Shown: positions 5,270 through 57,669 of the stretch, in pieces
How the letters are laid out: every line of letters begins with the position of its first letter
Position numbering within the stretch: position 1 is the stretch's first letter
From: a bacterium
GTDB lineage: Bacteria; UBA8248
NCBI GenBank assembly: GCA_965207065.1
Contig: OZ242260.1
Span: 672,001-736,000 of the forward strand
Direction: 5' to 3'
Length of the DNA: 64,000 nucleotides
Position numbers and translations under genes: made by a program
Notes under the pieces: model-generated
What the model was told of the DNA's origin: nothing
The model's input: the letters and a program-made list of their open reading frames with translations, nothing else
Databases searched by the model: none

Positions 5270-5273
5270 TGAT

Positions 5274-5292
5274 ATTCTCATTTATTGAGAAT
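5274..5292. promoter_or_regulatory. Palindrome ATTCTCA-N5-TGAGAAT, candidate IclR operator
   Basis: Perfect 7-bp inverted repeat at the start of the IclR gene. Confidence 0.5.
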
Positions 5293-7067: not shown

Positions 7068-7087
7068 ATATCGCGCGTGAAGCCACA

Positions 7088-7120
7088 GGCGCCCCGGGGA
7101 GTTTCCGGGGCGTCGTTTCA
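7088..7120 (+). terminator. Stem-loop after the binding-protein gene (terminator or mRNA-stabilising hairpin)
   Basis: GGCGCCCCGG...CCGGGGCGTC followed by a short T run. Confidence 0.45.
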
Positions 7121-7143
7121 CTCTTTTCGGGAGGCCCGGGCGC

Positions 7144-8025: not shown

Positions 8026-8041
8026 GGGCGCGAGAAGACCT

Positions 8042-9070: not shown

Positions 9071-9800
9071 GACCAAGGCTCTCACCAAGTCGTTCGGTTC
9101 GCTCCTGGCGGTGAACGAGGTGGACTTTCAGGTCCCGGAGGGGGAGTTGTGCGCCGTCATAGGCCCCAACGGAGCGGGGAAGACCACCTTCTTCAACCTG
9201 ATCTCGGGGAGGCTCGAACCCACGTCCGGCGGCGTTTTCTTCGAGGGGGAGGACATCACCGGGTATCCTCCGCACGCGGTGGTGAAAAAAGGGGTGGGCC
9301 GTTCTTTTCAGATCACGAACATATTTCCCAGGCTTTCGGTTCTGGACAACGTGCGCATCGCCGTCTTGGCGAGACGGGGAAAGACGCTGGACATGTTCTC
9401 CCCCATCGAGAAGCACACCGAAGAGCAGGAGGAGGCGCTTTCGATCCTCGGCGAGGTGGAACTCGAACACAAGGCGAATCACCCGACCACGGAACTGGGC
9501 CACGGGGAGCGGAGAAACCTGGAACTCGGCATCACGCTGGCGCTGGAGCCCCGCTTGATCCTGCTCGATGAGCCGACGGCCGGCATGTCGATCGAGGAGA
9601 CGTCGAACACGATAGATCTCGTGAAAAAGATATCCAGCGATAAAACGGTCGTCTTCACCGAGCATGACATGAGCGTGGTTTTCTCGATCGCCGATCGCAT
9701 ATCCGTTCTGCATCAGGGAAGCATCATCGCCGAGGGAACGCCGGATGAGATTCGAAACGACGACCTCGTCCGCCTCGCCTACCTGGGGGAAGAGGTGTGA
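9048..9800 (+). CDS. livG: Liv-type ABC ATPase
   Basis: Walker A GPNGAGKTT and Walker B LLDEPTAG. Confidence 0.9.
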   Translation: MATTPVLETKALTKSFGSLLAVNEVDFQVPEGELCAVIGPNGAGKTTFFNLISGRLEPTSGGVFFEGEDITGYPPHAVVKKGVGRSFQITNIFPRLSVLDNVRIAVLARRGKTLDMFSPIEKHTEEQEEALSILGEVELEHKANHPTTELGHGERRNLELGITLALEPRLILLDEPTAGMSIEETSNTIDLVKKISSDKTVVFTEHDMSVVFSIADRISVLHQGSIIAEGTPDEIRNDDLVRLAYLGEEV

Positions 9801-10498
9801 TTCTCAGCGTCGAGAAAATAAACACGTTCTATGGGGACAGCCATATTCTGTTCGACGTGGATATGAGTATCGCCGAGGGAGAGGTGGTGAGCCTCCTCGG
9901 CAGGAACGGCGCGGGAAAGACGACGACGCTCCGCTCCATCATGGGGCTGACGTCCCCGCGGGCGGGGAGCGTGTGCTGGCTGGGCGAGGAGGTGCAGCGC
10001 CTGAAACCTCACGAGATTGCGAGAAAAGGGGTAGGTTTCGTGCCCGAGGACAGGAGGATATTCTCCCGTCTGAGCGTGGAAGAAAACCTTGAGATAGGCG
10101 CTTTCAAGCTGGAGGGGCCAAGCGGCTGGACACTCGAGCGGATATATGGTCTTTTCCCCAAGCTTGAGCAATTGAAAGCCCACAAGGGGAACGAGCTCAG
10201 CGGCGGTGAGCAGCAGATGCTGGCCATCGCCCGCGCGTTGATGGGGGCGCCCAAGCTCGTTCTGCTCGACGAACCCTCGGAAGGCCTCGCGCCGGCCATC
10301 GTGAAAGACGTGGGCGAGATGATCGGCAGGCTCAAGGACGAGGGAATCGCCGTATTGCTTGTGGAGCAGAACACCCGCTTTGCCTGCCGGCTCTCCGATC
10401 GCGTCTACATCATCGACAACGGCAGGGTGCGTTTCGGTGGCACGGTGGCGCAGCTCGAAGCGGATGAGGAACTGAAATCGCGCTACCTGGCCGTTTGA
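9797..10498 (+). CDS. livF: Liv-type ABC ATPase
   Basis: GRNGAGKTT, LSGGEQQ and LLDEPSEGLAP. Confidence 0.9.
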   Translation: MILSVEKINTFYGDSHILFDVDMSIAEGEVVSLLGRNGAGKTTTLRSIMGLTSPRAGSVCWLGEEVQRLKPHEIARKGVGFVPEDRRIFSRLSVEENLEIGAFKLEGPSGWTLERIYGLFPKLEQLKAHKGNELSGGEQQMLAIARALMGAPKLVLLDEPSEGLAPAIVKDVGEMIGRLKDEGIAVLLVEQNTRFACRLSDRVYIIDNGRVRFGGTVAQLEADEELKSRYLAV

Positions 10499-41289: not shown

Positions 41290-42750
41290 TCAATCCGGGG
41301 TCAGCGCCTCCCTGCCAAAGCGCTCAATCGTCTCGAGCGTCTCGCGCACGTCGTCCCATGTCGTGGTGTGGTTGATGATGCAGAACCTGAGCGCGAACTT
41401 CCCCTTGAGAAGGGTGGATGAGACGAACGCCTTGTCGTCCCAGAAGATGCGGGCGAGCATCGTCTTGTTGATCTCCTCAAGCGCCTTATCGTCTAGTCCT
41501 GAGTCCGCCGGATTGACCCGGAAGCACACGACACCCAGCGAGACGGGCGTCAGCATCTCCAGAACCGGGCTCTCGCGGACGTACGCCTCCGCACGTTCGG
41601 CCAGTTCCATGCCCTTCGAGACGGCCTGCCGGAACGCGGCCATGCCGAAGGTCTGCACCGACATCCAGACCTTCAAGGCCCGGAAGGAACGGCTGAGCTG
41701 CAGGCCGCGATCGGAGAAGTTCGGGTGATTCGCGCCCCATATCGTGTCCTGTAAAATATCGTGCCGCACCGCAAACGCATTTTCGAGCGTAGTAACATCC
41801 TTCACGAGCAGGGCGCCCGCCTCGTAGGGCTGAAAGAACCATTTGTGCGCGTCCATTCCGATTGAATCGGCGCGCTCCATGCCCTTCAGGAGATTCTTGC
41901 CCTGCTCGGTGACGGCCGCGAAACCGCCGTAGGCGGCGTCGACGTGCAGCCAGATGCCCTGCGCATCGCAGAAGTCCGCCATCTCCCCGAGCGGGTCGAT
42001 AGCCCCCGTGCTCACCGCTCCGGCGTTGGCGCACACCGCGATAGGATGGAGCCCCGCCGCGCGATCCTCATTCACGGCGCGGGCGAGCGACTCCATATCC
42101 AGGCGGAAGTCTCCATCGCTCGGAAGAAGCCGTATCCGCTCGGGCTTGACGCCGATAATCCGCGCCGCGCGGATATGGGCGCTGTGGCTCTGGTCGCTCA
42201 TGTACACGCTCGCGCGATCGGGATGACCCGACGCTTCGCGCGCCGCGACGAAGGCGTCCAGGCTCGCCGCCGAACCCCCGCTCGTGAAAAGTCCGCCCGC
42301 GCTTTCGGGATAGCCGACCCAGCGCCGGAACCAGTCGATGACGACGAGTTCGAGCTGGCTCGGGCCGCTCGCGACCAGCCAGGTGCATTGGTTGATGGTG
42401 TAGCCTGCGGCCATGAAGTCGGCCAACACGCCGGGCCAGGTGGGTGAGGTCGAAACGAACGCAAGGGAACGGGGATGGTCCAGGCGCAACGAAAACGGGA
42501 GAATATCGCGCGCGGCGCGCTCCAAAACCTCCGACGCCGGACGGGCGGCCTCGGGCGGAGCCTCCATGAGCTGTTTTTCGAGTTCCTGCTGGAAATCCCC
42601 GTCCCACGCGCCTTGCTCGGCCAGATTCCCGCTTCGCTCCACGAGAATTTCCGCCGCCCTGCGCGCCAGATCGAGCATCTCTTCGGGCGCCATCCTGAGG
42701 CCGTCGCTCTCCCCAGCCTGCGCTTCTCTTCTTCCCTCCGAATTATCCAT
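41290..42750 (-). CDS. Group II PLP-dependent decarboxylase (aromatic L-amino acid/glutamate decarboxylase family), copy 1
   Basis: HPR, GLFTSGGS, WLHVDAAYGG and the PLP lysine in DAHKW. Start placed at ATG 42750 after GGGAG. Confidence 0.92.
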   Translation of the reverse strand: MDNSEGRREAQAGESDGLRMAPEEMLDLARRAAEILVERSGNLAEQGAWDGDFQQELEKQLMEAPPEAARPASEVLERAARDILPFSLRLDHPRSLAFVSTSPTWPGVLADFMAAGYTINQCTWLVASGPSQLELVVIDWFRRWVGYPESAGGLFTSGGSAASLDAFVAAREASGHPDRASVYMSDQSHSAHIRAARIIGVKPERIRLLPSDGDFRLDMESLARAVNEDRAAGLHPIAVCANAGAVSTGAIDPLGEMADFCDAQGIWLHVDAAYGGFAAVTEQGKNLLKGMERADSIGMDAHKWFFQPYEAGALLVKDVTTLENAFAVRHDILQDTIWGANHPNFSDRGLQLSRSFRALKVWMSVQTFGMAAFRQAVSKGMELAERAEAYVRESPVLEMLTPVSLGVVCFRVNPADSGLDDKALEEINKTMLARIFWDDKAFVSSTLLKGKFALRFCIINHTTTWDDVRETLETIERFGREALTPD

Positions 42751-43119
42751 TACGCATCTCCCATCGTATTGTGACATCGGAATAGAACATGGGGTGGTGC
42801 CAAAGAGACTGTTGCGGAGCCTTGCTCCCAGCGTCCCGTCCCACCCGAGCAGCCGGTCTTGCGTAACGGATATTCCCGTCACTTCATGTGTCGCATGCCG
42901 TCAATCTTCATTGATACGAATGAGGTTGTCAAAGAGAAAGGGCAAGCAGACCCCAGCCGACGGATGCCGGGAGGGCGTATCAGGAAAACGCAGCCAGGCA
43001 ATGGATACACATTACACAGATAGCGAACGATATTCGTTTCCTTTCAGCCCCATTTCTGGTGACTTGACCGGCAAATATCCAGCCGCTACAGGAATCGGGA
43101 AACGCAGGGAAGCGACCTC

Positions 43120-44583
43120 CTAACCATTTTCCTGCGCCAAAGCCTCTCCCCCGAACCGCTCAATCGTCTCAAGCGTCTCGCGCACGTCGTCCCATGTCGT
43201 GTTGTGGTTGATGATGCAGAACCTGAGCGCGAATCTCCCTTTGAGAAGCGTGGATGAGACGAACGCCTTATCGTCCCAGAAGATGCGGGCGAGAACCGTT
43301 TTGTTGATCTCCCCCAGCGCTTCCTCGTCGAGGTCCGCTTCCGCCGGACTCACCCGGAAGCAAACAATCCCCAGCGACACGGGCGTCAGCATCTCCAGAA
43401 CCGGGCTCTCGCGAACGTACTCCTCGGCTTGTGCGGCCAGTTCCATGCCCTTGGAGACGGCCCGCCGGAACGCGGCCATGCCGAAGGTCTGCACCGACAT
43501 CCAGACCTTGAGCGCCCGGAACGAGCGGCTCAGCTGCAGACCGCGATCCGAGAAATTCGGGTGGTTCGCGCCCCATATCGTGTCCTGGAGAATGTCGTGC
43601 CGCACCGCGAAGGCGCGCTCGAGTGTTGCCACGTCCTTCACGAGCAGGGCGCCCGCCTCGTAGGGCTGGAAGAACCATTTGTGCGCGTCCATCCCGATCG
43701 AATCGGCGCGCTCCATTCCTGCGAGGAGTTCCCTGCCCCGCTCCGTGACGGCCGCGAAGCCGCCATAAGCGGCGTCGACGTGCAGCCAGATTCCGTGCGC
43801 CTCGCAGAAATCCGCCATCTCCCCGAGCGGGTCGATCGCCCCCGTGCTGGAGGCTCCGGCGTTGGCGCACACCGCGATGGGATGGAGGCCCGCGGCGCGA
43901 TCTTCCGCCACGGCGCGCGTGAGCGCCTCCATGTCCAGGCGGAAGCGTTCATCGCTCGGGAGCAGCCGGATGCGTTCGGGCCGTATACCGATGATCCTTG
44001 CCGCGCGGACGTGCGCGCTGTGGCTCTGATCGGCCATGTAAACGCTCGCGCGATCGGGATGACCCGCCGCTTCGCGCGCCGCGACGAAGGCGTCCACGCT
44101 GGCAGCCGAACCACCGCTCGTGAAAAGCCCGCCCGCGCCCTCGGGGTAACCGATCCAGCGACGGAACCAGTCGATGACGACCAGTTCGAGCTGGCTCGGG
44201 CCGCTCGCGACAAGCCAGGTGCATTGATTGACGTGGAAGCCCGAAGCCATGAAGTCGGCCAGCACCCCGGGCCAGGTGGGCGAGGAGGGGATGAAGCCGA
44301 AGAAGCGGGGATGATCGTTACGCCCCGTGAGGGGGAGTATCTCGCGCGCGGCGCGCTCTAAAACCTCCAGCGCCGGGCGGCCTTCCTCGGGCGGAGTCGC
44401 CATCAGTTGCTTTTCGAGTTCCTGCTGAAAATCTCCGTCCCAGGCGCCCTCTTCGGGGAGCCTCTCGATGCGCTCCACCAATAGTTCCGACGCCCTGCGC
44501 GCAAGCTCAAGCATCGTCTCGGGCGTCATATGGAGGTTATCGCTCCCCAGGTCCGAAGCGGCTCTTCTCTCAGAATCTGCCAT
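43120..44583 (-). CDS. Group II PLP-dependent decarboxylase, copy 2
   Basis: Same motifs (HPRFFGF, HVDAAYGG, DAHKW) and nearly collinear with copy 1. Confidence 0.92.
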   Translation of the reverse strand: MADSERRAASDLGSDNLHMTPETMLELARRASELLVERIERLPEEGAWDGDFQQELEKQLMATPPEEGRPALEVLERAAREILPLTGRNDHPRFFGFIPSSPTWPGVLADFMASGFHVNQCTWLVASGPSQLELVVIDWFRRWIGYPEGAGGLFTSGGSAASVDAFVAAREAAGHPDRASVYMADQSHSAHVRAARIIGIRPERIRLLPSDERFRLDMEALTRAVAEDRAAGLHPIAVCANAGASSTGAIDPLGEMADFCEAHGIWLHVDAAYGGFAAVTERGRELLAGMERADSIGMDAHKWFFQPYEAGALLVKDVATLERAFAVRHDILQDTIWGANHPNFSDRGLQLSRSFRALKVWMSVQTFGMAAFRRAVSKGMELAAQAEEYVRESPVLEMLTPVSLGIVCFRVSPAEADLDEEALGEINKTVLARIFWDDKAFVSSTLLKGRFALRFCIINHNTTWDDVRETLETIERFGGEALAQENG

Positions 44584-45548: not shown

Positions 45549-47738
45549 TTACCGGGGTAAGTCGATTATCATCTCCGTGTATTCGTCCGGTTCGGTTTCG
45601 ACCCGTATGTGTCCCCCATGCTGACGAATAATGTCGCTGGAGAGCGATAGGCCAAGCCCGGTGCCCTTGTCCGTCGGCTTGGTCGTGAAGAAGGGGTTGA
45701 ATATCTTCTCGGCGACTTCGGGCGGCATACCACTCCCGTTGTCGCGAATGCGTACCTCGATGCCATCCGGCCTGCACTTGGTGGCGACCCTGAGGGTGGG
45801 ATCGTAGCGCGGCGCATCTTCGGCCGAGGAGGCGGAGAGTTTTTGTCGCTTCTCGTCGGTGGCGTAGCAGGCGTTGCTCACCATGTTCAAGAAGACGCGG
45901 CCCAAATCCTGCGGAATGGCATCGAACTCCACCATATCCGGGTCCAAATCCCAATCGAGCGTGATGTTGAAATTCGGATCGGCCGCCCGTGCGCTGTGGT
46001 AGGCGAGACGCGCGTGTTCCTCGATCAGGGTATTGATGTTGGTCGGCTGCGCATCGCCCGAACCCCTGCCCATCTGGAGCATGCTCTCCACGATATTGTT
46101 GGCCCGCTCCCCATGCTCGCGGATGCGCTGGAGGTTGCCGGTGAGGTCTTCGCCGATTTCGGTGATGACCTCGATCGGATCTTCCTCGTCCTGTTTTTTC
46201 TCTTCCTTCTCCGGTTCTTGTCCGTTCTCCTGTCCGTTGCCGCCGTGAGTCTCCACCTTTCCCAGCTCTTCCATCAATTCTTCCATCAACTCCTCGGAGA
46301 CTTCCGAGAAGTTCTTGATGAAGTTCAGCGGATTTCTGATCTCGTGGGCGACGCCCGCCGTCAGTTCACCGAGCGCCGCGAGTTTCTCGCGCATGACGAT
46401 CTGATCCTGCGCTTTCTCCAGATCGCCGAGCGCGCTTTCGAGTTCTTCGTTCTTGCCCTTGATTTCCTCGGCCAGTTTTTCCACCAGGTTCAGACGCTGC
46501 ACCTCCAGGGCGTGGCGACGGAAGATCTCGAGCGCCGCGGCCATTTCCGCGACTTCGTCCTGTCCGCCGATATCGACTTTCTCCTCCAGATCGCCATCGG
46601 CCATCCGGCGCATGCGGTCCGAAAGCTGCCCGAGCCGACGCGAAAGTACGCGGCCGATGAACAGCCAGCCGATCAGCACGGCGCCGATGAAACTGATGGC
46701 GCTCAGCGCGAGCAGGATGTTGCTGCCGGTGCTGATGGCCTGGGCGGAATCCTGGGTGGCCTGTTTTGCGCTCTTGCGGGCCGTGCTCACCAGCGTTTCG
46801 GTGGCGGCCAGAATTTTCGCTTCCAGGGATTCGTGAAAAGAGAGCAACTCACCCTGTTTCCTCTCGAGCGCCAGTTCGCCCGCCCGCAGGTTGAACCCTC
46901 CCTCCTCGCCGTTACTCAGCTCGATCATCTGCTCGAAAAGAGGCTCGAGGGCAGCGCGCACCGGAACGTTCCCGAGCGCGCCCAGGCGCCGCCTGATGCC
47001 GCGCACCGTGGCCTCGAAACGCTCGCGCAGCGGCTCGAGCAGGGCGGCGTCCGATACGCTGAAGGCGGTGGCGAGAAGCTGCGCCGCGATGGTGGCGTCC
47101 GACCTCAGACCGGCGATGTAGCGGTAGAGGTTGATTCCCTCTTCCGAGAAGTGTTGCTCGCGCGGGACGGACGGCTTGTCGATTTTGCTGAAGCCCGTCA
47201 TGGCGAAGAACAGCTGATCGTCGATGGCGGGAACCATGACGTTGCTCAATTCCTTGCGCACCCACGTGAGCTGGAGCTGCAGCGTATCGTGCGAATCGGT
47301 GAGGTCGAAGCGCTGCAGCACCAATCGTTTGATGGCGGTGAGGTTTTCGATGAGCACGTCGCCGAGTTTCTTGATGCGCAGGGAGATTTCCTGATTGCCT
47401 CCCTGGCGTATCAGCGCCGCCAGCGCTTTCTCGAACGCCTCCTGGTCCTTGGCGACCTCGGTGGCTATCTGCTCCAGATTATCGGGATTCACCACAGCGG
47501 CCAGGCGAGGCGCCGCGGCCACCAGGGCGCTGCTGTGCTGAGCGGTTCCAAAGGCGCTCGCCAGGAATGGAACGGTGCCCTCGTTCACGCGATTCTGCAC
47601 CCCTCCCACGAATGCGAACGAGACCCATGCGACCACGCTCGCGATGACGGTGAGAGAGGCGGCGGCGCCGATGCTGAGGTAGAGCTGCGTCGATATCTGG
47701 TAACGCTTGTCCAGAAGGATTTTCAGCGCGCTTTTCAT
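45549..47738 (-). CDS. Membrane sensor histidine kinase (large periplasmic helical domain, HAMP, HisKA, HATPase)
   Basis: Two TM segments, HAMP (DEVAEMA), H-box AHEIRNPL, N-box NMVSNA, DNGSG and FFTTK...GTGLGL. ATGA-coupled to the upstream gene. Confidence 0.92.
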   Translation of the reverse strand: MKSALKILLDKRYQISTQLYLSIGAAASLTVIASVVAWVSFAFVGGVQNRVNEGTVPFLASAFGTAQHSSALVAAAPRLAAVVNPDNLEQIATEVAKDQEAFEKALAALIRQGGNQEISLRIKKLGDVLIENLTAIKRLVLQRFDLTDSHDTLQLQLTWVRKELSNVMVPAIDDQLFFAMTGFSKIDKPSVPREQHFSEEGINLYRYIAGLRSDATIAAQLLATAFSVSDAALLEPLRERFEATVRGIRRRLGALGNVPVRAALEPLFEQMIELSNGEEGGFNLRAGELALERKQGELLSFHESLEAKILAATETLVSTARKSAKQATQDSAQAISTGSNILLALSAISFIGAVLIGWLFIGRVLSRRLGQLSDRMRRMADGDLEEKVDIGGQDEVAEMAAALEIFRRHALEVQRLNLVEKLAEEIKGKNEELESALGDLEKAQDQIVMREKLAALGELTAGVAHEIRNPLNFIKNFSEVSEELMEELMEELGKVETHGGNGQENGQEPEKEEKKQDEEDPIEVITEIGEDLTGNLQRIREHGERANNIVESMLQMGRGSGDAQPTNINTLIEEHARLAYHSARAADPNFNITLDWDLDPDMVEFDAIPQDLGRVFLNMVSNACYATDEKRQKLSASSAEDAPRYDPTLRVATKCRPDGIEVRIRDNGSGMPPEVAEKIFNPFFTTKPTDKGTGLGLSLSSDIIRQHGGHIRVETEPDEYTEMIIDLPR

Positions 47739-48922
47739 CGCTTCTCCGGCCGCAGGATTTTTTCGGTCGAAACGTAGCGGCCGCCCTCTCCGATGACGGT
47801 GAGGAAAACGGCGTCCGAACCCTGGTTGTCGTCTTTGCCGTAGCGGAGCTTGAATCCACCGAGGTCGATGGTGGCCGCGCGGTTCAGACCCTCGAGAAGA
47901 CAGGCGCGATCGGGCTCGCGTCCACACAGTTCGAGGGCGCGGATGGTCAGTCTGCCGGCCATGTAGCCCTCCAGGGAGACGAAGCTGGGAACCGCTCCGG
48001 GCTTGTGAACCTCCAGATCCCGCCGGTAGTCCGCCGCGACCTTGAGATTCTTCGTCGTCGGGAACGGAACAACCTGAGTGACGTAGATGCCGACGCCGGC
48101 GGGGCCGAGTTCATGTACGAGCGCATTGCTGCCCACGAAGGAGAGCGTCACGAAAATCGGATTGAACCCCGTGTGGCGAGCCCAGGCGATAAAGGAAGCA
48201 ACGGGTTTATAGGCTCCCACGAGGACCACGGCCCCGGGGTTTGCGCGTCTGATGTCGAGCAGGGCCGTTTTGACCGCCGTCGTATTCCGTGGATAGACTC
48301 CGGTGACCGCAGGCTTCAGATTGCGCCGCTCGAGTGCGCGGCGAACGCCCCGGTAGCCCGCCAAGCCGAAAGAATCGTCCTGGTAGAGCACGGCGATCTT
48401 CTTGACGCCCAAGTCCTTGATCAGCCGATTCACCATCTCCTCGGTCTCCTGGAAGTAGGAGGCGCGCAGGTTGATGATGTTTTTCCATTTGGGATTGCGC
48501 AAGAAGGCGGCGCCGGTGAAGGGCGCGATATAGGGGACGCCCGCTTTTGCGGCGACCGGAGTGGCCGAGCGCGAGGTGGGCGTGCCGACGGCCCCGATGA
48601 GCGCGAAGACCTTGCTCTGTTCTATCAACCGGCGGGTATTCAGGATGGCGGCTTCGGGTTCATACGCATCGTCGAGGGAAGTGAGTTCGAGCCGGCGTCC
48701 GAAAACGCCGCCGCGCACGTTCGACGCGCGAAAGGCGGCTTCGATGCCGAGGCGCATTTCCTCGCCCAGAGCCCTCGCGGGTCCGGTGAAGGCGGCGGAC
48801 TGGCCGAAGAGAATCCGGTGGGGGGAAACCCCGGGCACGGCCGCTTGCGCTCCCGACACCGAGCAGATTATCGCTGCAGCAAGGAGGATAAGCGTCCGGC
48901 GGATTCTGAGCGAGAGGCTCAT
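47735..48922 (-). CDS. Periplasmic binding protein (PBP type 1, LivJ-like) with no cognate permease
   Basis: Signal peptide, GQSAAFTGP, DDAYEP, GAVGTPT and NLRASY. Confidence 0.88.
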   Translation of the reverse strand: MSLSLRIRRTLILLAAAIICSVSGAQAAVPGVSPHRILFGQSAAFTGPARALGEEMRLGIEAAFRASNVRGGVFGRRLELTSLDDAYEPEAAILNTRRLIEQSKVFALIGAVGTPTSRSATPVAAKAGVPYIAPFTGAAFLRNPKWKNIINLRASYFQETEEMVNRLIKDLGVKKIAVLYQDDSFGLAGYRGVRRALERRNLKPAVTGVYPRNTTAVKTALLDIRRANPGAVVLVGAYKPVASFIAWARHTGFNPIFVTLSFVGSNALVHELGPAGVGIYVTQVVPFPTTKNLKVAADYRRDLEVHKPGAVPSFVSLEGYMAGRLTIRALELCGREPDRACLLEGLNRAATIDLGGFKLRYGKDDNQGSDAVFLTVIGEGGRYVSTEKILRPEKR

Positions 48923-49341
48923 TCACTCCTCCGCTTGACAAGGCGCATGTGGTTCTTGTTCTCCTCCCGTCGATAAGTCACTTCGTCCATCATCGTTCGC
49001 ACCAGATGGATGCCGAGCCCGCCCACGGCACGGTCCTCGATAGTCGATTCCGTGTCCGGGTCGGGGGCGTCGGTCAGGGGATCGAACGGACGGCCGCTGT
49101 CAATAATATCGATGACCACCGACTCCGCGTCCGAGAAGAGTTCAATCTTGATTTCACCTTCTTCTCCTTCGCTGCTGCCGTGGTGAACGACGTTGAGCAC
49201 CAGTTCTTCGAGCACGAGGTCGACCTGGAATTCGATGTCGGGCGGCCAATCCTGCTCGCGGCTGAATTCCCCGATGGCGGATTGAATGCGCGGGAGATCG
49301 GCGGCTTCGAACCCCATGGTCAATGAAAGTTTCGCGCTCAT
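48919..49341 (-). CDS. RsbW/SpoIIAB-like anti-sigma factor Ser/Thr kinase (HATPase_c)
   Basis: N-box EELVLNVVHHG, DSGRPFDP and GGLGIHLV. Confidence 0.9.
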   Translation of the reverse strand: MSAKLSLTMGFEAADLPRIQSAIGEFSREQDWPPDIEFQVDLVLEELVLNVVHHGSSEGEEGEIKIELFSDAESVVIDIIDSGRPFDPLTDAPDPDTESTIEDRAVGGLGIHLVRTMMDEVTYRREENKNHMRLVKRRSE

Positions 49342-50552
49342 TCGCTCCCCCCGCGGCGGTAAAGGGTCAGACAGGTGATGTCATCGAACTGGGGCGCCCT
49401 GCCTGCGAATTCCTTCACCGCGTCGAAAATCTTGTCGTTGATCTCCTTGGCGGAGGACGGCGACGCGCCTCCGAGAATCCCCAGAAGGCGATCAAGGCCG
49501 AATTGTTCGGTCTTCACGTTCTCGGCCTCCGTCACGCCGTCGGTATAGAGAATGAGGGCTTCGCCGGGCGCGAGAGTCGCATTGTACATGTCGTAGCTGA
49601 ATTCCGGCGCGATCCCCAGAGCTACTCCCGGTTGCTGGGCAAGCAGGCTCGATGAGCCGTCGGCGTGAATGATGACCGGGGGGTTGTGGCCGCCGTTGGC
49701 ATACACCATTTCTCCGGTCTTGGATTCGAAAAAAGCGAAGAAGACGGTGACGAACATCGCGGCCTCGTTGTTTTCCTGAAGCAGCCGGTTCACTTCGCTG
49801 AGCACGTCGCCGGGCCGGAGTAGACGATTCACCTCGCCGAGCACCTCGCCCGGATTCGCGCGCGCGACGGCGACGCTGTTGAGCAGCGTGCGGCTCGACA
49901 TCATGAAGAGCGCGGCGGGCACGCCCTTGCCCGAAACGTCGGCGACCGTGATGCCGATGCGGTCGCCGCCGAGGTTGATCACGTCGAAGAAATCGCCCCC
50001 CACATCCCGGGCCGGCACCATGCCAGCGTAGATTTCGTAGTCGGGGCTCTCGGGAAACTTGGTCGGCAGGATCGACTGCTGCATCTTGCTGGCCAGGTCG
50101 AGGTCACTTCTGAGAGCGACCAGCTTGTCGCGCGCCTCAAGGGCTTCGCGCAGCATGGCGAGGTGTTCGAGGGTCCGATCGATGGTGATACGCAAATCCT
50201 CGAAATCGATCGGCTTGGTGACGAAATCAAACGCGCCCCTGTTCATCGCCGTGCGGATATTCTTCATGTCCCCATACGCCGAAACGACCACGGAACGCAC
50301 GTTGGGGTCGACCGAGGGGATTTGCTTGAGCAGCGTCAGGCCGTCCATCTCCGGCATGTTGATGTCGGTGAGCACCATGTCAATAGGATCGCCGCCGTTC
50401 TCGTTCAAGCGTTCGAGCGCCTCGACTCCGTTGCGCGCGAATACGAACGAATAGCGGCCCCGCCGAATCTCGCGCCGCATGCGCTGCAGCACGAGTTGTT
50501 CGAGATCGGGCTCATCGTCCACCACGAGTATCCTGTGGGGCTCTTCCATCAC
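49338..50552 (-). CDS. Response regulator-PP2C/SpoIIE phosphatase (RsbU/RsbY-like)
   Basis: REC domain (VVDDE, DINMP, KP) followed by VGGDFFD, ADVSGKG, YTDGVTEA and DDIT. Confidence 0.93.
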   Translation of the reverse strand: MMEEPHRILVVDDEPDLEQLVLQRMRREIRRGRYSFVFARNGVEALERLNENGGDPIDMVLTDINMPEMDGLTLLKQIPSVDPNVRSVVVSAYGDMKNIRTAMNRGAFDFVTKPIDFEDLRITIDRTLEHLAMLREALEARDKLVALRSDLDLASKMQQSILPTKFPESPDYEIYAGMVPARDVGGDFFDVINLGGDRIGITVADVSGKGVPAALFMMSSRTLLNSVAVARANPGEVLGEVNRLLRPGDVLSEVNRLLQENNEAAMFVTVFFAFFESKTGEMVYANGGHNPPVIIHADGSSSLLAQQPGVALGIAPEFSYDMYNATLAPGEALILYTDGVTEAENVKTEQFGLDRLLGILGGASPSSAKEINDKIFDAVKEFAGRAPQFDDITCLTLYRRGGSE

Positions 50553-50989
50553 GACCTCCCTTCCGTCAACATCTTGTCGCGCGCCTCGAACGCCTCTCGT
50601 ATCTCCCCGAGATGCTTCATCGACTTGTCGATGGTATTCCGCAGGTCCTCAAAATCAATCGGCTTGTTGAGGAAATCGAATGCGCCCCTGTTCATAGCCG
50701 TGCGGATGTTTTTCATGTCTCCATATGCGGAGACGATGACGCAGCGCAGCTTGGGGTCATATGCCGGAATTTGCTCGAGCAAAGTGAGGCCGTCCATCTC
50801 CGGCATGTTGATGTCGGTGATGACGATGTCGATTCCATTGTCTCCGCTCAGGCATTCGAGCGCTTCGACCCCGTTGCGCGCGTATACGAACGAATAGCGA
50901 CCGCTGCGAATCTCGCGCCGCATTCGCTGATTCACGAGGTCTTCGAGGTCCGGTTCATCATCCACCACGAGTATCCGGCAGGTTTCCAT
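50549..50989 (-). CDS. Single-domain response regulator, paralogue of the REC domain of the downstream phosphatase
   Basis: RILVVDDEPDLE...DINMPEMDG...AYGDMKNIRTAMNRGAFDF. Confidence 0.9.
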   Translation of the reverse strand: METCRILVVDDEPDLEDLVNQRMRREIRSGRYSFVYARNGVEALECLSGDNGIDIVITDINMPEMDGLTLLEQIPAYDPKLRCVIVSAYGDMKNIRTAMNRGAFDFLNKPIDFEDLRNTIDKSMKHLGEIREAFEARDKMLTEGRS

Positions 50990-51403
50990 TTTCCTGACTA
51001 TCTCCTCATTGCCCCTGCTGCGCTCGCCCAGCGGATCCGACAAATACGAATCCCAGCTAAATGTATAAAAGACTTACCCTTCGCGCAACTCATTTTTTAA
51101 CTTCACCCATGCAATCCGAGGAGCGGAGCAGCGGTTTGCAACCCTCTGAAGCCCAGGCTCCTACTGCGCACGACCACGGCTCGACACCACTGCTCCAGCG
51201 GATTTCATCCATCATGAATCCTCTCCCGCGAGCAACTCGGCCTCGCGAGCCCGTTAGCAGACCCTGGGCCGAACGGGGATAAGACCTCGAATATTTCATC
51301 TGCCGCCTGCTTGTCCCGACCCTGGTGTTTGCGTATCTTGAGGCGCGACCCATCGAGTGGTCCTGAAGCCGCCGACCACCGCAACATCGAGAAAGGTTCC
51401 TCC

Positions 51404-52070: not shown

Positions 52071-53816
52071 TCAACTCCCTGTGACCCTTCCCGTCCCGGG
52101 GACCTCCACTCGAACGGTCACGATGTCCGTGTCGTGATATTGCTGGTGGCGGACCGACGATGCGAGGTGGCGCAGCAGCCTGAGCGAGACTTCGCGCTCG
52201 ATGGGCGCGCCTGCCGTCTGCTCGCCGAGCAGCGCGATTTTATCCTGCAGGTTCTCCTCCCCGCCCGCGGCGACGAACTCCATCACTGCGCCGCCGTCTT
52301 CCTTATGCGCCACCACGAGCAGCCGCCTTCGCTCGCGGTCCTCATCTGCTTCATCCTGACGCAGAATCGTCAGCAGCGTCTCCTCGCCCACGGCGTCGAG
52401 GCGTTGCGCCATCGCCTCATCCCAGCCGCCGGCGGAGGCGAAATCACCGAGAAAATCCCGTATCTTCGGAAGCGCCGAGATGTCGAACGCCACCTCGATA
52501 CGGCTGCGCCGCGGCTCGGTGAGTTCGACGAACAAGGTCATGATCATGGCGACGAGTCCGCCGGCCGTCATTCCGTTGTTCAGAAGGCCGCCAGCGAACC
52601 CCGTGAAATAATCCGGGAAGATCACGCCGTTCTGGAAGCCGACGCCCGCCCAGAACGCGACGCCCGCCACCAGCCCCTTGCGGTAGTCGATCCCGTCCTG
52701 AACGACCATCCGCATGCCGACAATGAAGAGCATCGCCAGCAACACGGTGATGTAGGCAGCGGCGACCGGGGCCGGTATCGCCAGCACCAGGGCGACCAGC
52801 TTGGGCAAAAACGCCAGGGAGAGAAACACCAGCCCGGCGGCGATTCCCACGCTGCGCGCGCCGACGCCGGTGAGTTCGGTGACGGACACGCTCGTCGAAT
52901 AGGTCGTGTTCGGCACCGTCGCCAACAGACCGGAGAGCAGGTTGCCCACACCGTCGGCCGCCACCGCGCCCTGCACCGCCTTGAAATCCACCGCCCGGGG
53001 CCGCCGCCAGGACACGCGCTGGATAGCGGCGCCGTCGCCCACGGTTTCGATGGCGCCGATTAAGGTCACGAACACGAACCCGGGAAGAAGCGTCCAGAAA
53101 ACCGGCCCGAAGCTCAGGTCCAGGCCCGGCCACGCGCCTTGGGGAAGACCGACCCACGAAGCCCCGGCGACGCGGGCCGTATCGTAGATGCCGAAATAAC
53201 CGCCGATTATCGAGCCCGTAACCACACCGATCACCGGCGCCCACAGGCGCAGCGCCCCCGTCGCCTTGAGCGCGATGCCGACGATGACGGTCACCGCCGC
53301 CAGCGCGCTCAGCGGAGCGGCGAGCGGCGAGCTGCCCTTCGGCACGTCATCGAGCATGTTGAAGACGATGGGCATCACCGTCACCGCTATCAGCATGATG
53401 ACGGTTCCCGCGACGGTCGGCGTCAGCACACGCCGGAACAGCGAGAGCCTTTCTGAGAGCACGAACTGAAACAGCGAGGAGGCGAGAACCAGCGTGGCGA
53501 GCATCCCCGGTCCTCCCTTGGCGAGCGCCGCGATGCAGACCGCGATGAAAGCGCCCGAGGTGCCCATGATGAGCACGTAGCCCGCGCCGAAGCGGCCGAC
53601 CCTGTACGCCTGGAGCATCGTGGTCGCGCCGCAGACCGCCAGGCCGGCGAACACGGCCCACGAGAGATAATCCTCCGTTCCGCCGGCGGCCCGCACCACG
53701 ATCAACGGCGTGAACACAATGCCGCCCACGCAGAGGATGGCGAGCTGCATCCCCAGACCGAACGAGAGCAGGGGCGGCGGTTTTTCGTCGGCTTCGTAGC
53801 GGACGTCGGTGTTCAT
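52071..53816 (-). CDS. NCS2 (xanthine/uracil permease) family protein with a C-terminal RsbW-like HATPase-fold extension
   Basis: LGMQ, GTSGAF, ETVGD, ADGVG and NAT-like segment PNTTYSTSV..TELTGV. The ~150-aa tail aligns by eye to the RsbW at 48919. Confidence 0.85.
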   Translation of the reverse strand: MNTDVRYEADEKPPPLLSFGLGMQLAILCVGGIVFTPLIVVRAAGGTEDYLSWAVFAGLAVCGATTMLQAYRVGRFGAGYVLIMGTSGAFIAVCIAALAKGGPGMLATLVLASSLFQFVLSERLSLFRRVLTPTVAGTVIMLIAVTVMPIVFNMLDDVPKGSSPLAAPLSALAAVTVIVGIALKATGALRLWAPVIGVVTGSIIGGYFGIYDTARVAGASWVGLPQGAWPGLDLSFGPVFWTLLPGFVFVTLIGAIETVGDGAAIQRVSWRRPRAVDFKAVQGAVAADGVGNLLSGLLATVPNTTYSTSVSVTELTGVGARSVGIAAGLVFLSLAFLPKLVALVLAIPAPVAAAYITVLLAMLFIVGMRMVVQDGIDYRKGLVAGVAFWAGVGFQNGVIFPDYFTGFAGGLLNNGMTAGGLVAMIMTLFVELTEPRRSRIEVAFDISALPKIRDFLGDFASAGGWDEAMAQRLDAVGEETLLTILRQDEADEDRERRRLLVVAHKEDGGAVMEFVAAGGEENLQDKIALLGEQTAGAPIEREVSLRLLRHLASSVRHQQYHDTDIVTVRVEVPGTGRVTGS

Positions 53817-54092
53817 GTGCTGATCGGAACCCTTGGCGCTCAATGTCGTATCCTTCCCGGCCGGCAAGCGGGTCTGCGGTGGAGCGGAAACCCATGCTCG
53901 ATATGCTTCGTAGCGGATAGCCAAGTTTCTCACACCACTTCCGGCCCCTCAAGAAAAAAACCCTGCGAAGGATACCGACGGGCAAAATAGCTCATCCGGC
54001 GCGATGTCAGGGATGAATTCGGGGTTGGGGGGGAGCTTGAGGGGAAAAATAGCATAATTTATGTTTTTTTCCGGCGAAAGGTTATATTTTTA

Positions 54093-54120
54093 TTGACGAG
54101 GCGATCACGGCGCATATACT
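54093..54120 (+). promoter_or_regulatory. Sigma70-like promoter upstream of the NHLP precursor
   Basis: TTGACG-16nt-TATACT. Confidence 0.55.
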
Positions 54121-54262
54121 TTCCTTAAGTTGTTATTTTTTTCCGGAGCGAAGAGGCGGAATATCACCGCTCTCAGACGCTTGCTGCCGCATGGCCCCCC
54201 GGCCATGGGAGGAATCTCACACCACCCGCAATCGGGCGGCATTTTGTGGAGAACGCGAAGCA

Positions 54263-54550
54263 GTGAAAACCATCGAGGAAGTAAGAGAGGGTATCATCCG
54301 AAAAGCCAGCGAGAACGAGGCGTTCCGCTCCGAATTGCTTACCGACCCCAAGGCCGCCATCGAGAAGGAACTGGGGGTCACCATTCCCGAGGGATTCAAG
54401 ATCGGCGTGCACCAGGACAACCTCATGAGCATCAACCTGGTGTTGCCGCCTGCCGAATTGAGCGAGGCGGACCTCAACGCCGTCGTGGCCGGCTCGGGGT
54501 CCATGCTGGACCTTGCCAGCGCCTGGAACAGCTTGAACCAGAACTCCTGA
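54263..54550 (+). CDS. NHLP (nitrile hydratase-like leader peptide) RiPP precursor
   Basis: IIRKA..NEAFRSELLTDPKAAIEKELG..IP...LVLPP followed by the double-glycine-type motif ELSEADLNAVVAG. Predicted core SGSMLDLASAWNSLNQNS. GTG start after GGAG. Confidence 0.9.
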   Translation: MKTIEEVREGIIRKASENEAFRSELLTDPKAAIEKELGVTIPEGFKIGVHQDNLMSINLVLPPAELSEADLNAVVAGSGSMLDLASAWNSLNQNS

Positions 54551-54747
54551 TGCGATATACCGAAACAGTTCCATAATTTGCTCGACAGGTTTGCCGGAAA
54601 ACCCCGGGAGGGGCAGGTGCGGGAAACCTCCTTGCGGGTTTATGCGGCTCTGCGACCCGCTTCACTGAAGGGAGACCAAGGGGCCGAGTTTGCTCATCGT
54701 CGCCTTGATAAAAATGGATACATCCTGCTCAGAAACAGGATTAGACG

Positions 54748-55842
54748 ATGGCTGAGAATTTCGGGGATGTCTTTCCCAGGCTGCGCCGCTTTATTCCATC
54801 CTCCCTGCTCGACGGCCCGTGGCGGGGTCGCCTGGAGGAGCGCGTCGGTGAACTTCCGGGTTGGCTGACGCTCAATTACGCGGCGTTCGAGTTCCGGCTG
54901 GGAGACCCTGCGCCCGCCGCCGATTATTTCGTATCGCTCGCGCCGGGGCGGCCGTCTTTGGAGTATTTCGTTCGTCAGGGCGAGGACGCAAAGCCCGATT
55001 CCCCGGAGGCGGCCCTCGGCCGGGTCTTCGCCCGCATGAACGGAGTGGCTCCCCCTTCCGAACCCTCTCTCGCCGGCTGGTTCAGGGCGTCGATGCTCGA
55101 ATACGACATCGCGGAGGTCCCTTCGGACCTGAACCCGGCCCCGGGCGTATTCCTGGCGCTGCAGCCCGAGTCAGAACTGGATAAAGATGTCGCGGGTTCG
55201 AGAACCCCCGACCGCCTGGCCGCCGCCATAGCGAATGCGGTCGGGTGGGAGGAGGACGAGGAGGAGCGCAGATCCGTGGAGCGGGTCTTCGCCGCCTTGC
55301 CCCGTGACGGCGTGGTGGACCAGATCGGCGCCGTGGCGCAGCGAGAGCCGCGCTCCATACGCCTCATCATGGACGGGTTGAAGCAGCGAAACATGCCGGC
55401 GTTGCTCAAGCGGCTGAAGTGGGAAGGCTCCGCCCGGAAGGTGATGGACATTCTGGAGGAGATGCGTGACGTGACGCCCGTCTTCCGGCTGGCCGTGGAC
55501 GTCGCCGCGAACGGGGTGGGTCCGCGCCTGGGCCTCGAGATGTACAGGCCGAGGAAACCCTCGAACCTCGACTACTGGCTCACGTCCGGGCGCAACGCCT
55601 GGCGTCCCGTCGTGGACTACCTCGAAGAGATGAAATGGTGCCTGCCGGAGAAGGGAGCCGGGCTGCGCGCCTTCCCGGGAATCGAGCGGCTCTTCGAGGA
55701 AAAAGGCATGTCCATCCTCTACAAGGGGATCAACCACTTCAAGCTCTCGATCGAGGGCGACGCCATCGAGGCCAAGGCCTACGCCGCCCTCGCCTACTTC
55801 CGGCTCTACGCCGACTCGGAGGGTGAGTCCGGGCAGGCGTGA
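54748..55842 (+). CDS. Uncharacterised protein, putative RiPP-modifying enzyme (possible ABBA/PT-barrel prenyltransferase fold)
   Basis: 364 aa, soluble, directly downstream of the NHLP gene. Short beta-strand-like motifs FEFRL, LEYD, SIRL, RLGLEMY, NHFKL and EAKAY. The function is an inference. Confidence 0.55.
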   Translation: MAENFGDVFPRLRRFIPSSLLDGPWRGRLEERVGELPGWLTLNYAAFEFRLGDPAPAADYFVSLAPGRPSLEYFVRQGEDAKPDSPEAALGRVFARMNGVAPPSEPSLAGWFRASMLEYDIAEVPSDLNPAPGVFLALQPESELDKDVAGSRTPDRLAAAIANAVGWEEDEEERRSVERVFAALPRDGVVDQIGAVAQREPRSIRLIMDGLKQRNMPALLKRLKWEGSARKVMDILEEMRDVTPVFRLAVDVAANGVGPRLGLEMYRPRKPSNLDYWLTSGRNAWRPVVDYLEEMKWCLPEKGAGLRAFPGIERLFEEKGMSILYKGINHFKLSIEGDAIEAKAYAALAYFRLYADSEGESGQA

Positions 55843-56200
55843 CGGTGGGATGAAAACAGAAAGCCGTTCAAGTACGACAATACCCCCTGCCCCTCTCCCG
55901 CCACGAATACGACGTCCTCGCACCGGACGTGCTCGCAGAACGCCAAGGGGCGGATTTCCACGCGAAACGGGGGACTGCTCTTTTTCAGGACTTCCTTGCT
56001 ATCGCAGGCGCGGCGGTTTCGGGCGGGTTCTCAGAACGCGGGCATGTCGAGGCCCGATTCGCGGCGCGTCATCCTCCGCGCGGGTGAACACACGGGGAAC
56101 GCCGGGATTTCAAGATACGGCGAATCTTCATGTTTTCGATAATTCCCTGATATCTTATCTATTTGAATTGCATATGGTTACATGATATCCGCGCCCCGGA

Positions 56201-56229
56201 TTGACACCCCGGAAGCCCCTTTTTACTAT
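56201..56229 (+). promoter_or_regulatory. Sigma70-like promoter of the cytochrome c' gene
   Basis: TTGACA-17nt-TACTAT. Confidence 0.6.
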
Positions 56230-56276
56230 GGGGCATTCTTGGGAAGAGCCGTCCAGGCCGCCAATGAGGAGTGGAT

Positions 56277-56750
56277 ATGCGAATCGGGAAATGGGTGTGC
56301 GCGCTGGTGTGCGTGGTCTTGATGGCGGTGGTTTTTCTTCCCTCTTTTACCGCAGGCCAGGACGAGCAGACGATGCGCGGCGTGCAAAGGGTGCGCGTGC
56401 GCACGATGAAGAGCATCAGCCGCGCGATGCGCCGGGTCAAGGTCTACACCAAGAAGGCGAACTACAAGCGCGTCGCGGCGGCGGCGGAGGAAATCGCGCT
56501 GCTCTCGGCGGCGATTCCTTATCTCAGCCCCAAGGGCAGCGCTTTCGGCAAGACGCGGATCAAGGCGGAAGTCTGGAGCCGTTTCGACGACTACACGAAA
56601 ATCGCCAGAGATTCGGCGCAAATCGCGAGAGACGTCGCCAAAGCGGCTCAGGCGAAAGATAAGGATGCCGTGCTGAAAGCGTTCAGCGCCTTGTCGGACA
56701 GCTGCACGCAGTGCCACAAGCCGTTCCGCAAGAAAAAGAAAAGAAAATAA
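56277..56750 (+). CDS. Cytochrome c'/c556-like class II cytochrome c
   Basis: Signal peptide, helical body and C-terminal CxxCH (CTQCHKPFR). Confidence 0.88.
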   Translation: MRIGKWVCALVCVVLMAVVFLPSFTAGQDEQTMRGVQRVRVRTMKSISRAMRRVKVYTKKANYKRVAAAAEEIALLSAAIPYLSPKGSAFGKTRIKAEVWSRFDDYTKIARDSAQIARDVAKAAQAKDKDAVLKAFSALSDSCTQCHKPFRKKKKRK

Positions 56751-56785
56751 GCCACAGCCGCTCCACACAGGTTCGAGGACGCGCA

Positions 56786-57669
56786 TTGATCACCCGGCCC
56801 ACGGTTCCCGGGCCGACCCGGATACGAAACCGCCGAAATTCAAGGCTCCCCCGGGAGCGGCGGATTGTCATTTTCATATTTTCGGGCCCGAGGCGGAGTA
56901 TCCCTACGCCGAGCCCAGGCGGTACACGCCCGTTCAGGTACTGGAGAACGACTACCGGAAGATGGCCGGCGTTCTGGGCCTGGAACGGGGCGTCGTGGTG
57001 CAGGCGAGTCCCTATGGCGCGGACAACGCAAGAGTGCTCGAGGCGATTCGCGTCTTAGGACCGGGCTATGTCGGCGTGGGCGTGGTGGATGCGGACGCCT
57101 CTGAGGAGCGGCTCGATGAGTTGAACCGGCTCGGCATCCGGGGCGCCCGCATCAACATGGCTTCGGGAGGCAGAAGCGGAATCGAGCGGATGAGTGAGTT
57201 GGCCGCCAAAATCAAGGATTTCGGCTGGCACATGCAGTTTCATTTACACGCCGGGCAGTTGCCCGTTTATGAAGAGCAGTTCTGGAGACTGCCGGTCGAC
57301 GTGGTGTTCGACCACATGGGTCTTTTCCCCGCGGATTTGCCAATCACGCACCCCGATTTCAGGCTGCTGCTTCGTTTGCTCGAAAGCGGGAACGTATGGG
57401 TGAAGCTGAGCGGCGCCGAGCGCATCTCCAGGAGCGGCTCTCCTTACCACGACGCCATCCCCGTGGCGCGCGCCTTGATTGACGCCGCACCCGAGCGAGT
57501 GGTGTGGGGGACCGATTGGCCGCACACGAACGTGAAGCCCATCATTCCCAATGACGGGGATTTGATGGACCTTCTCGCGGAATTCGCGCCTGAGGACAGC
57601 GTGCGCCGGAGAATACTGGTGGAGAACCCTTGCGCCCTCTACGGGTTCGAGGAACGGAAATCCCTCTGA
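56786..57669 (+). pseudogene. Amidohydrolase_2 family protein (LigI/2-pyrone-4,6-dicarboxylate lactonase-like) with an apparent 1-bp frameshift near the 5' end
   Basis: GAGGA + TTG 56786 reads MITRPTVPGP, but DPDTKPPKFKAPPGAADCHFHIFGP and the rest (DHMG, VKLSG, WGTDWPH) are in another frame with no upstream ATG/GTG/TTG. Confidence 0.6.

Follow-up and report, generated by a model that had tools for sequence, protein, structure and literature searches.

The window analysed here, a 64-kb stretch of contig OZ242260.1 (assembly GCA_965207065.1), carries two neighbouring genes on its forward strand: one for a precursor peptide with a leader of the NHLP family (54263..54550) and one for a 364-residue enzyme with a predicted ABBA-type (PT-barrel), prenyltransferase-like fold (54748..55842). 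Both genes, and all features of the pair given below, are read in the + direction. An original prediction, made from the nucleotide sequence alone, had described the pair as a minimal two-gene locus for a peptide that is made on the ribosome and modified after translation (RiPP), with the enzyme as a candidate prenyltransferase acting on Trp.

The precursor gene has a GTG start and encodes 95 residues followed by a stop codon. Its product matches TIGR03793 ('NHLP leader peptide family RiPP precursor') over profile positions 3-77 of 77 with an E-value of 5.5e-18, and the score of 64.6 bits lies above the curated cut-off of 50.9 bits, which confirms the precursor family proposed earlier. As expected, the sole Pfam result for the precursor was a weak likeness to nitrile hydratase alpha. 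The leader comprises residues 1-77 (54263..54493) and contains an L-x4-L stretch, LSEADL (residues 66-71, 54458..54475), and a Gly-type end, VVAG. Leader residues 62-77 end as ...PPAELSEADLNAVVAG, and LSEADLNAVVAG is the acidic L-x4-L stretch followed by the Gly-type cut site, the next residue being S78. L-x4-L stretches have a role in binding to leader-dependent enzymes and to C39 domains (PMC12715784). In alignment A4, which holds 22 precursors, G77 is invariant, and L66 and E68, as well as W88 in the core, are kept at frequencies of at least 90%. The core peptide, SGSMLDLASAWNSLNQNS, consists of residues 78-95 (54494..54547) and has, just as had been read at first sight, 18 residues, no Cys and one Trp. 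This residue, Trp88 (codon 54524..54526), is the proposed prenyl acceptor.

A Shine-Dalgarno-like GGAG (54248..54251) is found 11 nt ahead of the precursor GTG, and in the Nitrospinota-group loci introduced below the translated stretch 5' of the start is retained as GELEA or GEPEA. The candidate promoter named in the original prediction is a sigma-70-like TTGACG-16 nt-TATACT (54093..54120), 143 nt 5' of the precursor start, that fits the consensus at 10 of 12 positions; two such promoter-like sites occur in 53900-56300, against 0.6 +/- 0.9 in shuffled sequences. Between the precursor stop codon and the ATG start of the enzyme gene lies a spacer of 197 nt (54551..54747), with AGGA at 54737..54740, 7 nt ahead of the ATG. 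The predicted RNA fold of the spacer (-59 kcal/mol) equals that of shuffled sequences (-59.6 +/- 4.3 kcal/mol, z = 0.14), hence no special structure is indicated, and 53000-57000 gave no Rfam match at E <= 0.1. An attenuator in the spacer was dropped as a candidate on these two grounds.

Predicted fold and conserved residues of the enzyme

An AlphaFold2 model of the enzyme, based on an alignment of 54 sequences, has a mean predicted local distance difference test score (pLDDT) of 92.0 and a predicted template-modelling score (pTM) of 0.90. The secondary-structure elements of the model follow the order alpha-alpha-beta-beta five times, with 10-11 strands that pair as 45-50/58-64, 112-119/133-138, 189-195/204-209, 245-253/256-266, and 311-336/339-354. 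This order is the ABBA or PT-barrel pattern, and would correspond to a 10-strand antiparallel barrel. Six strand-like motifs had been picked out before any model was available, and all six are present, each on a model beta strand: FEFRL (residues 47-51, strand 45-50), LEYD (117-120, strand 112-119), SIRL (203-206, strand 204-209), RLGLEMY (260-266, strand 256-266), HFKL (330-333, strand 320-336), and KAY (343-345, strand 339-354). A Foldseek search of the PDB with the model gave 82 matches at E <= 0.001, the best with E 1.2e-6 and probability 1.00. We examined 37 rows from ranks 1-50 of these matches, and all 37 are ABBA aromatic prenyltransferases, many of which act on indole (AmbP1, TleC, IptA, PriB, AmbP3, NphB/Orf2, EpzP, FamD1, 5-DMATS, AnaPT, CloQ, and CymD). 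The PT-barrel suspected in the original prediction was thus recovered as a predicted fold. A feature search of the ESM Atlas gave Trp_DMAT as the nearest named cluster (score 0.90), with PTase_Orf2 lower. We treat this match as a weak lead only, because its recognition value, 1300, is below the useful level.

The enzyme belongs to a large protein family. A word-indexed search returned 101 relatives, none of which has a Pfam domain and of which those that carry a name are called 'hypothetical protein'. An exhaustive profile search found 4,106 representative clusters, counted at 50% identity, at E <= 0.001 and 1,339 at E <= 1e-30. When 50 of 150 listed distant representatives were scanned with Pfam no prenyltransferase family was detected; the same scan gave a sulfotransferase domain in P0237 and a sub-threshold AAA_lid match in P0208. 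Fusions within the family join the enzyme domain to a sulfotransferase (P0237), an FkbM methyltransferase (P0273 and P0318), TfuA (P0364), or a 2-oxoglutarate (2OG) oxygenase. In P0229 (679 residues) the family profile matches two stretches, and the 340-residue N-terminal half, which has no Pfam family, may be a second, diverged copy of the family domain. A search for longer family proteins found only one, a TfuA fusion, and no fusion to a cyclase, which is weak evidence that such fusions are lacking.

Across 222 aligned members, with identities down to about 26%, 13 polar residues are conserved at 89-99%: E48, D59, and D120 (99%), R199 and K332 (98%), Y345, together with W285 (97%), H330 and K343 (96%), E118, R205, and K302 (94%), and D251 (89%). 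Most of the conserved polar residues are on predicted strands, and the pairs E118/D120, H330/K332, and K343/Y345 have i/i+2 spacing. Known prenyltransferases have K-x-Y and R-x-K-x-Y strands, which serve as the comparison for these residues. Judged by strand position and alternation in the model, the conserved set fits a diphosphate site of basic residues and Tyr plus an acidic site for Mg2+ or for a base.

Recurrence of the gene pair

Related loci were collected in one scan of GTDB species genomes with an alignment of 12 sequences, a scan that reaches relatives bearing two chosen motifs. It gave 31 loci that encode a relative of the enzyme with 37-89% identity, and their labels are Nitrospinota, SAR202/Dehalococcoidia, Gemmatimonadota, Latescibacterota, Gammaproteobacteria, or merely 'bacterium'. 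Using the window precursor as tblastn query, an NHLP precursor was found in all 31, and in 29 of them the nearest precursor is less than 300 bp from the enzyme gene and on the same strand. The exceptions are L020 (588 bp) and L028 (2,017 bp). Kept in every one of the 31 related loci, the pairing reflects more than chance. The loci are not independent of one another (15 are close Nitrospinota-type relatives); the pairing is nonetheless retained in at least five deep lineages. Note that L021 (Gemmatimonadota label) and L022 (Candidatus Latescibacterota label) share about 95.6% DNA identity over 13 kb, flanks included. Horizontal transfer between phyla was considered for these two loci and rejected, since the identity extends through the flanks, and they are probably a single lineage that carries two taxonomic names. 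Phylum counts for the family need to be read with care.

A motif search recovered 47 precursors from the 31 loci plus the window. In the alignment of these, G77 lines up with GG or AG in all 47, and 43 have a Trp downstream of the Gly-Gly or Ala-Gly site. Grouped by eye the cores fall into 17 distinct types, 15 of which contain Trp. Two of the types, FGAFWG from three SAR202 loci and FPIGGAPLWG from L020, have no nucleophilic side chain besides Trp. In the window and its 14 close relatives (L001-L014), the core ends in an 11-residue stretch that hardly changes, A/V-N/S-A-W-N-S/N-L-N-Q-N-S/I, whereas residues 78-84 vary. The DNA of these 15 sequences behaves likewise: the last 11 core codons are near-invariant (extra variants: 2 synonymous, 4 amino-acid) and the first seven vary freely. 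Such constancy is atypical among RiPP cores, a hint that this end may serve in recognition or receptor binding.

Precursor copy number differs among the loci. In L025 and L026 (about 4700-8500, Gammaproteobacteria label) there are tandem modules of NHLP precursor and enzyme, the copies being about 93% identical. Degenerate precursor copies are also found in these two loci, either with Arg in place of the core Trp or with a deletion at the leader end. L015 has two precursor copies 5' of the enzyme gene (5146-5798). One has an in-frame stop three codons short of the usual end (...NAWNSLS*NS), and the other combines a divergent leader with a long extension at its C-terminus.

In other lineages the pair keeps more company than in the window. 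TIGR03796, the model for the C39 peptidase/permease/ATPase of the NHLP export system, scored above its cut-off in L018, L019, and L030, and TIGR03797 did so in L018, L019, and L028; partial HlyD-type open reading frames also lie beside the pair in exporter-bearing loci. By Pfam, C39-ABC proteins are present in five of the ten loci scanned. Overall, NHLP export machinery adjoins the pair in SAR202 loci, in those with Gemmatimonadota or Latescibacterota labels, and in Dehalococcoidia loci. A larger type of cluster is represented by L019, L021, L022, L024, L029, and L031 (about 5460-10300). As scanned in L019 and L022, it contains an NHLP export ABC pair, a precursor with the His-rich core AENCEWGHDHHDEYHVPLGGP, the enzyme, and in addition a cytidine-deaminase-like gene, a WelO5-like Fe/2OG gene, and a 478-residue gene of unknown kind. 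Hence the label 'minimal two-gene locus' suits the window and L004 and L015, and fails for relatives in other lineages, where NHLP export/peptidase ABC and tailoring genes accompany the pair. Since the relatives stand beside such genes, the maturation genes are probably elsewhere in the genome from which the window comes.

A more distant member was found when a plasmid collection was searched by tblastn. The one match (22% identity, E 7e-11) is a coding sequence on plasmid pPg_03 of Pseudanabaena galeata (NZ_CP112877.1, 7944-9737; L032) that is annotated as '2OG-Fe(II) oxygenase'. Its N-terminal ~370 residues belong to the enzyme family: in an hhalign comparison with the family profile this domain gave a probability of 99.9 and E 1.1e-31 over 339 columns, with every signature residue kept. 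The C-terminal part is the oxygenase, so the annotation misses the larger domain. The Pseudanabaena locus also encodes LanM and a precursor with a Nif11 leader. The core of this precursor, EFVVGSIVISILTGAAAGYLVNQIPPIKW, lacks Cys and has Trp at its C-terminus (...PPIKW). A search from the Pseudanabaena protein gave 170 relatives; among the best 120, the named ones are mostly cyanobacterial, and the proteins either stand alone or carry a fused 2OG oxygenase or FkbM methyltransferase. The Nif11/LanM member and these fusions therefore point to a peptide-tailoring family that serves both NHLP and Nif11 leaders. The neighbourhoods of the homologues are in line with the earlier expectation of a link to NHLP or Nif11 precursors with a core Trp.

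Proposed chemistry and its alternatives

The reading that we favour, and regard as somewhat better than an even proposition, is that the pair is a two-gene RiPP module in which the ABBA enzyme prenylates Trp88 under the guidance of the leader. The sequence of events would be as follows. The 95-residue precursor would be synthesised as a structured NHLP leader joined to a linear 18-residue core, and the 364-residue enzyme would take up the ABBA (PT-barrel) fold. The barrel would hold a prenyl diphosphate, probably with Mg2+, the diphosphate being bound by R199, R205, K302, H330, K332, K343, and Y345, and the metal by E48, D59, E118, D120, and D251. The enzyme would dock on the structured leader and its L-x4-L stretch and alkylate the indole of Trp88. 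An NHLP-type C39 peptidase/ABC exporter encoded elsewhere would then cleave after VVAG and export the product, which would be a prenylated linear 18-mer.

Several observations weigh against this proposal. Docking was modelled by complex prediction, where enzyme and precursor scored 0.45 and the best of three controls 0.12, which is weak support for the interaction. Of the solved complexes 116 of 157 reach the mark applied, as do 2 of 215 mismatched pairs, and 18 of the 157 solved complexes and both of the passing mismatches lie at 0.60 or under; these calibration counts are rough, since custom alignments were used for the prediction. The runs share at least 56% of contacts, with a partner pLDDT of at least 72. 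Other points concern the acceptor. The window core contains three Ser as well as Asn, Gln, and Asp, and it would have free termini once cleaved. Four of the 47 precursors have no Trp (two are degenerate, with W -> R or a truncation, and two are from a six-gene array in L030), and the position of Trp in the core is not fixed, ranging from two residues past the cut site to the C-terminus. These features would suit an active peptide prenyltransferase that uses an acceptor other than Trp (the new N-terminal amine, the C-terminus, Ser, Thr, or another group), maybe after leader removal, which would liken it to several cyanobactin F-family enzymes. However, Trp is the only residue common to nearly all core types (43/47), FGAFWG and FPIGGAPLWG offer no other nucleophilic side chain, Trp appears again, at the C-terminus, in the distant Pseudanabaena locus, and many of the Foldseek rows listed are indole prenyltransferases. 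We consider a non-Trp acceptor unlikely.

A further set of negative results bears on whether prenyl transfer takes place at all. At E <= 1 neither Pfam nor NCBIfam has a family that matches the enzyme, which agrees with its having been called unannotated in the original prediction. It has no sequence match to PF11991 (Trp_DMAT) or PF11468 (PTase_Orf2), and a PDB search with a profile of 54 relatives returned no chain at E <= 10. The structural likeness is at the level of the fold only, with moderate TM-scores of 0.39-0.59, root-mean-square deviations of about 7-9 A, and 9-15% identity. The ABBA fold might then serve without prenyl transfer, as an inactive relic, as a leader-binding scaffold or chaperone, or in other peptide chemistry. 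PatF is an inactive relic of the ABBA fold, and the acid-rich conserved set E48, D59, E118, D120, and D251 is unlike the classical metal-independent DMATS pattern. Against this stands the conservation of the 13 polar residues, which is typical of a catalytic site rather than of a scaffold. To our knowledge, the ABBA-fold proteins solved so far are all prenyltransferases or their relics, and the 37 Foldseek rows listed contain prenyltransferases throughout. Moreover, the basic residues and Tyr suit a diphosphate and the acids suit Mg2+, a metal used by cyanobactin-type prenyltransferases and present in the MppC model (PMC13290415, section 2.3; PMC12715784). An ABBA fold that transfers no prenyl group thus seems an improbable explanation for this family.

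The remaining points concern maturation. No protease or exporter (C39, ABC exporter, or HlyD) was found among the 60 open reading frames scanned in the 64-kb window or in the scanned flanks of two Nitrospinota-group loci (L004 and L015), and the NHLP export system (TIGR03796/TIGR03797/TIGR03794) is absent beside the pair in the window. Were the pair an orphan or a decaying remnant, with leader removal and export missing, no mature product would be formed, and the L015 precursor copies, one with an early in-frame stop and one extended, could be seen in the same light. Nevertheless, both genes are intact in the window and in its 14 close relatives, where precursor DNA identities are 80-99.6% (15 sequences) and the leader codons carry 54 extra synonymous versus 44 extra amino-acid variants. 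The enzyme is 82-98% identical across many independent assemblies, and RiPP exporters are often encoded elsewhere in the genome. A pair without a mature product therefore seems to us quite improbable. Least probable by far is a coincidental adjacency of two genes that do not cooperate, given the pairing in 31 of 31 loci, including lineages whose enzymes are only 37-49% identical to that of the window, and its recurrence with a Nif11 precursor on a cyanobacterial plasmid.

Leader-guided prenylation of Trp88 can be extended to a broader but much more tentative proposal, one that we think may well not hold in full. The enzyme would stand for a very large unnamed ABBA family that prenylates Trp in linear NHLP and Nif11 peptides under leader guidance, and its products would form a new RiPP class, 'prenylated proteusins', spread over uncultured bacteria of several phyla and over cyanobacteria. 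In Nitrospinota the pair would be a portable two-gene lipidation module, and the near-invariance of the core in that lineage is a hint of a ComX-like signal rather than an antibiotic.

Related systems and the surroundings of the pair

A RiPP precursor with a leader plus an ABBA prenyltransferase acting on Trp is an already known kind of system, and the original prediction was right in supposing that related enzymes had been described beside cyanobacterial precursors. MppC, from the mpp cluster of Moorena producens, is a soluble ABBA prenyltransferase that depends on a Nif11 leader and attaches a geranyl group to the indole C5 of one Trp (PMC12715784); the enzyme and its cluster are also covered in PMC11791876 and 10.64898/2026.10.04.756588. 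The window enzyme resembles MppC in the ABBA fold (predicted here), in the long structured leader of its substrate with an L-x4-L stretch, and in the single Trp, and Mg2+ has been modelled at the MppC barrel. They differ in that the MppE leader is of the Nif11 type and the window leader of the NHLP type, and in that MppC prefers a heptapeptide cyclised by a LanM, whereas the core here is free of Cys and no LanM (MppM in the mpp cluster) was found in the window. The mpp cluster also holds many further enzymes.

The second known case is NctPC, whose substrate is reportedly a cyanobacterial proteusin, that is, a peptide with an NHLP leader. NctPC (Hubrich et al., Chem 2024) is a fusion of a prenyltransferase and a terpene cyclase that has an ABBA barrel, prenylates Trp of a ribosomal peptide, and shows low sequence similarity to cyanobactin prenyltransferases, as described in PMC13290415 (section 2.3). 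The likeness to the window enzyme lies in the ABBA barrel (predicted here) and in the Trp of a ribosomal peptide. The difference lies in the fused MstE-like cyclase of NctPC, by which the geranylgeranyl group is cyclised after transfer; the window enzyme is stand-alone, and no terpene synthase or cyclase was found among the 60 window open reading frames. Homology of the window enzyme to MppC or NctPC is plausible, because the distant Pseudanabaena member of the family sits in a LanM/Nif11 locus.

Cyanobactin enzymes of the F family (PagF, KgpF, and LimF, among others; IPR031037) are similar to the window enzyme in that they have the ABBA fold, peptide substrates, and Mg2+ assistance, and some act on Trp. 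The 37 Foldseek rows listed include no structure of an F-family enzyme. The absence of any NCBIfam or Pfam match at E <= 1 extends to the F-family model TIGR04445, which was presumably included in the NCBIfam copy searched. F-family enzymes need no leader (PMC12715784; PMC11002830) and work on substrates that PatA/PatG have processed (PMC12715784). PatA/PatG-type proteases and a PatE-type precursor are absent among the 60 window open reading frames, and the precursor is of the NHLP type.

PalQ and ComQ prenylate Trp as well, and are related to trans-isoprenyl-diphosphate synthases with the all-alpha isoprenoid-synthase fold (PMC10853753 and PMC13290415). PalQ shares with the window a precursor (PalX) of NHLP type with a conserved Trp, a small cluster (three genes), and a leader that enhances prenylation. 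In contrast, PalQ needs a terminal (C-terminal) Trp and is all-alpha, whereas the window model has 10-11 strands and ABBA matches; the window enzyme has no polyprenyl-synthase Pfam match at E <= 1. The best structural matches are bacterial ABBA enzymes that act on indoles and other small molecules (TleC, IptA, PriB, CymD, AmbP1/3, NphB, and CloQ; E 1e-6 to 5e-5, probability 1.00), which differ from the window enzyme in that their substrates are free Trp, indolactam, hapalindoles, and phenolics, and include no leader-bearing peptide. Among NHLP systems, the srp proteusins have precursors with an LCCCW core, a YcaO protein, and a brominase, and come from metagenome-assembled genomes (MAGs) of many phyla (10.1101/2023.06.09.544420). 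They share with the window an NHLP precursor and a modified Trp (proposed here), and differ in the core and in having YcaO and a flavin halogenase, both absent from the window. A survey of RiPPs in sponge MAGs describes NHLP families with many enzyme types, and its available part does not mention prenylation (PMC9426513). In the openly accessible literature we found no ABBA prenyltransferase described beside NHLP precursors in these non-cyanobacterial lineages. The present case differs in its NHLP leader and its linear core without Cys, in the stand-alone enzyme of a locus with two genes, in hosts outside the cyanobacteria, and in a very large family for which the libraries searched hold no model.

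If Trp88 is prenylated, thousands of 'hypothetical proteins' would gain a function and merit a family model; some members are at present misnamed after a fused domain, such as the Pseudanabaena '2OG-Fe(II) oxygenase'. The NHLP peptides of uncultured bacteria would gain a lipidation route beside those of YcaO, halogenase, radical SAM, and acyltransferase enzymes. A precursor plus one soluble enzyme would approach the simplest genetically encoded, site-specific peptide lipidation, and would complement both the leader-independent cyanobactin enzymes and the terminal-Trp-specific PalQ. The generality of the leader-docking model of MppC could then be judged on an NHLP leader with a linear core. Should the enzyme prove homologous to MppC or NctPC, the finding would shrink to a stand-alone member of a known group, and its value for annotation would remain.

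The rest of the window was surveyed by a Pfam scan of 60 open reading frames of at least 110 residues, the set to which the window-wide negatives above refer. No YcaO, LanM/LanC, radical SAM, GNAT, or C39 peptidase was detected, in agreement with the earlier impression, and only housekeeping, transport, and regulatory genes were found. Divergent from the precursor gene lies a gene on the - strand (52071-53933) for a 620-residue NCS2/xanthine-uracil permease, with a Pfam match at residues 60-432 and a C-terminal extension of about 150-190 residues that matches no family. A permease of the same Pfam family is directly 5' of the precursors in L015. Farther 5', also on the - strand, a regulatory block (45549-51043) encodes a HAMP histidine kinase, a periplasmic binding protein, an anti-sigma-type HATPase_c_2 kinase, a fusion of a response regulator with a SpoIIE phosphatase, and a lone response regulator; parts of this block are retained 5' of the pair in L004 and L015. 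Finally, two adjacent genes on the - strand (41290-42882 and 43120-44583) encode paralogous pyridoxal phosphate-dependent decarboxylases (Pyridoxal_deC, E about 1e-64 each).

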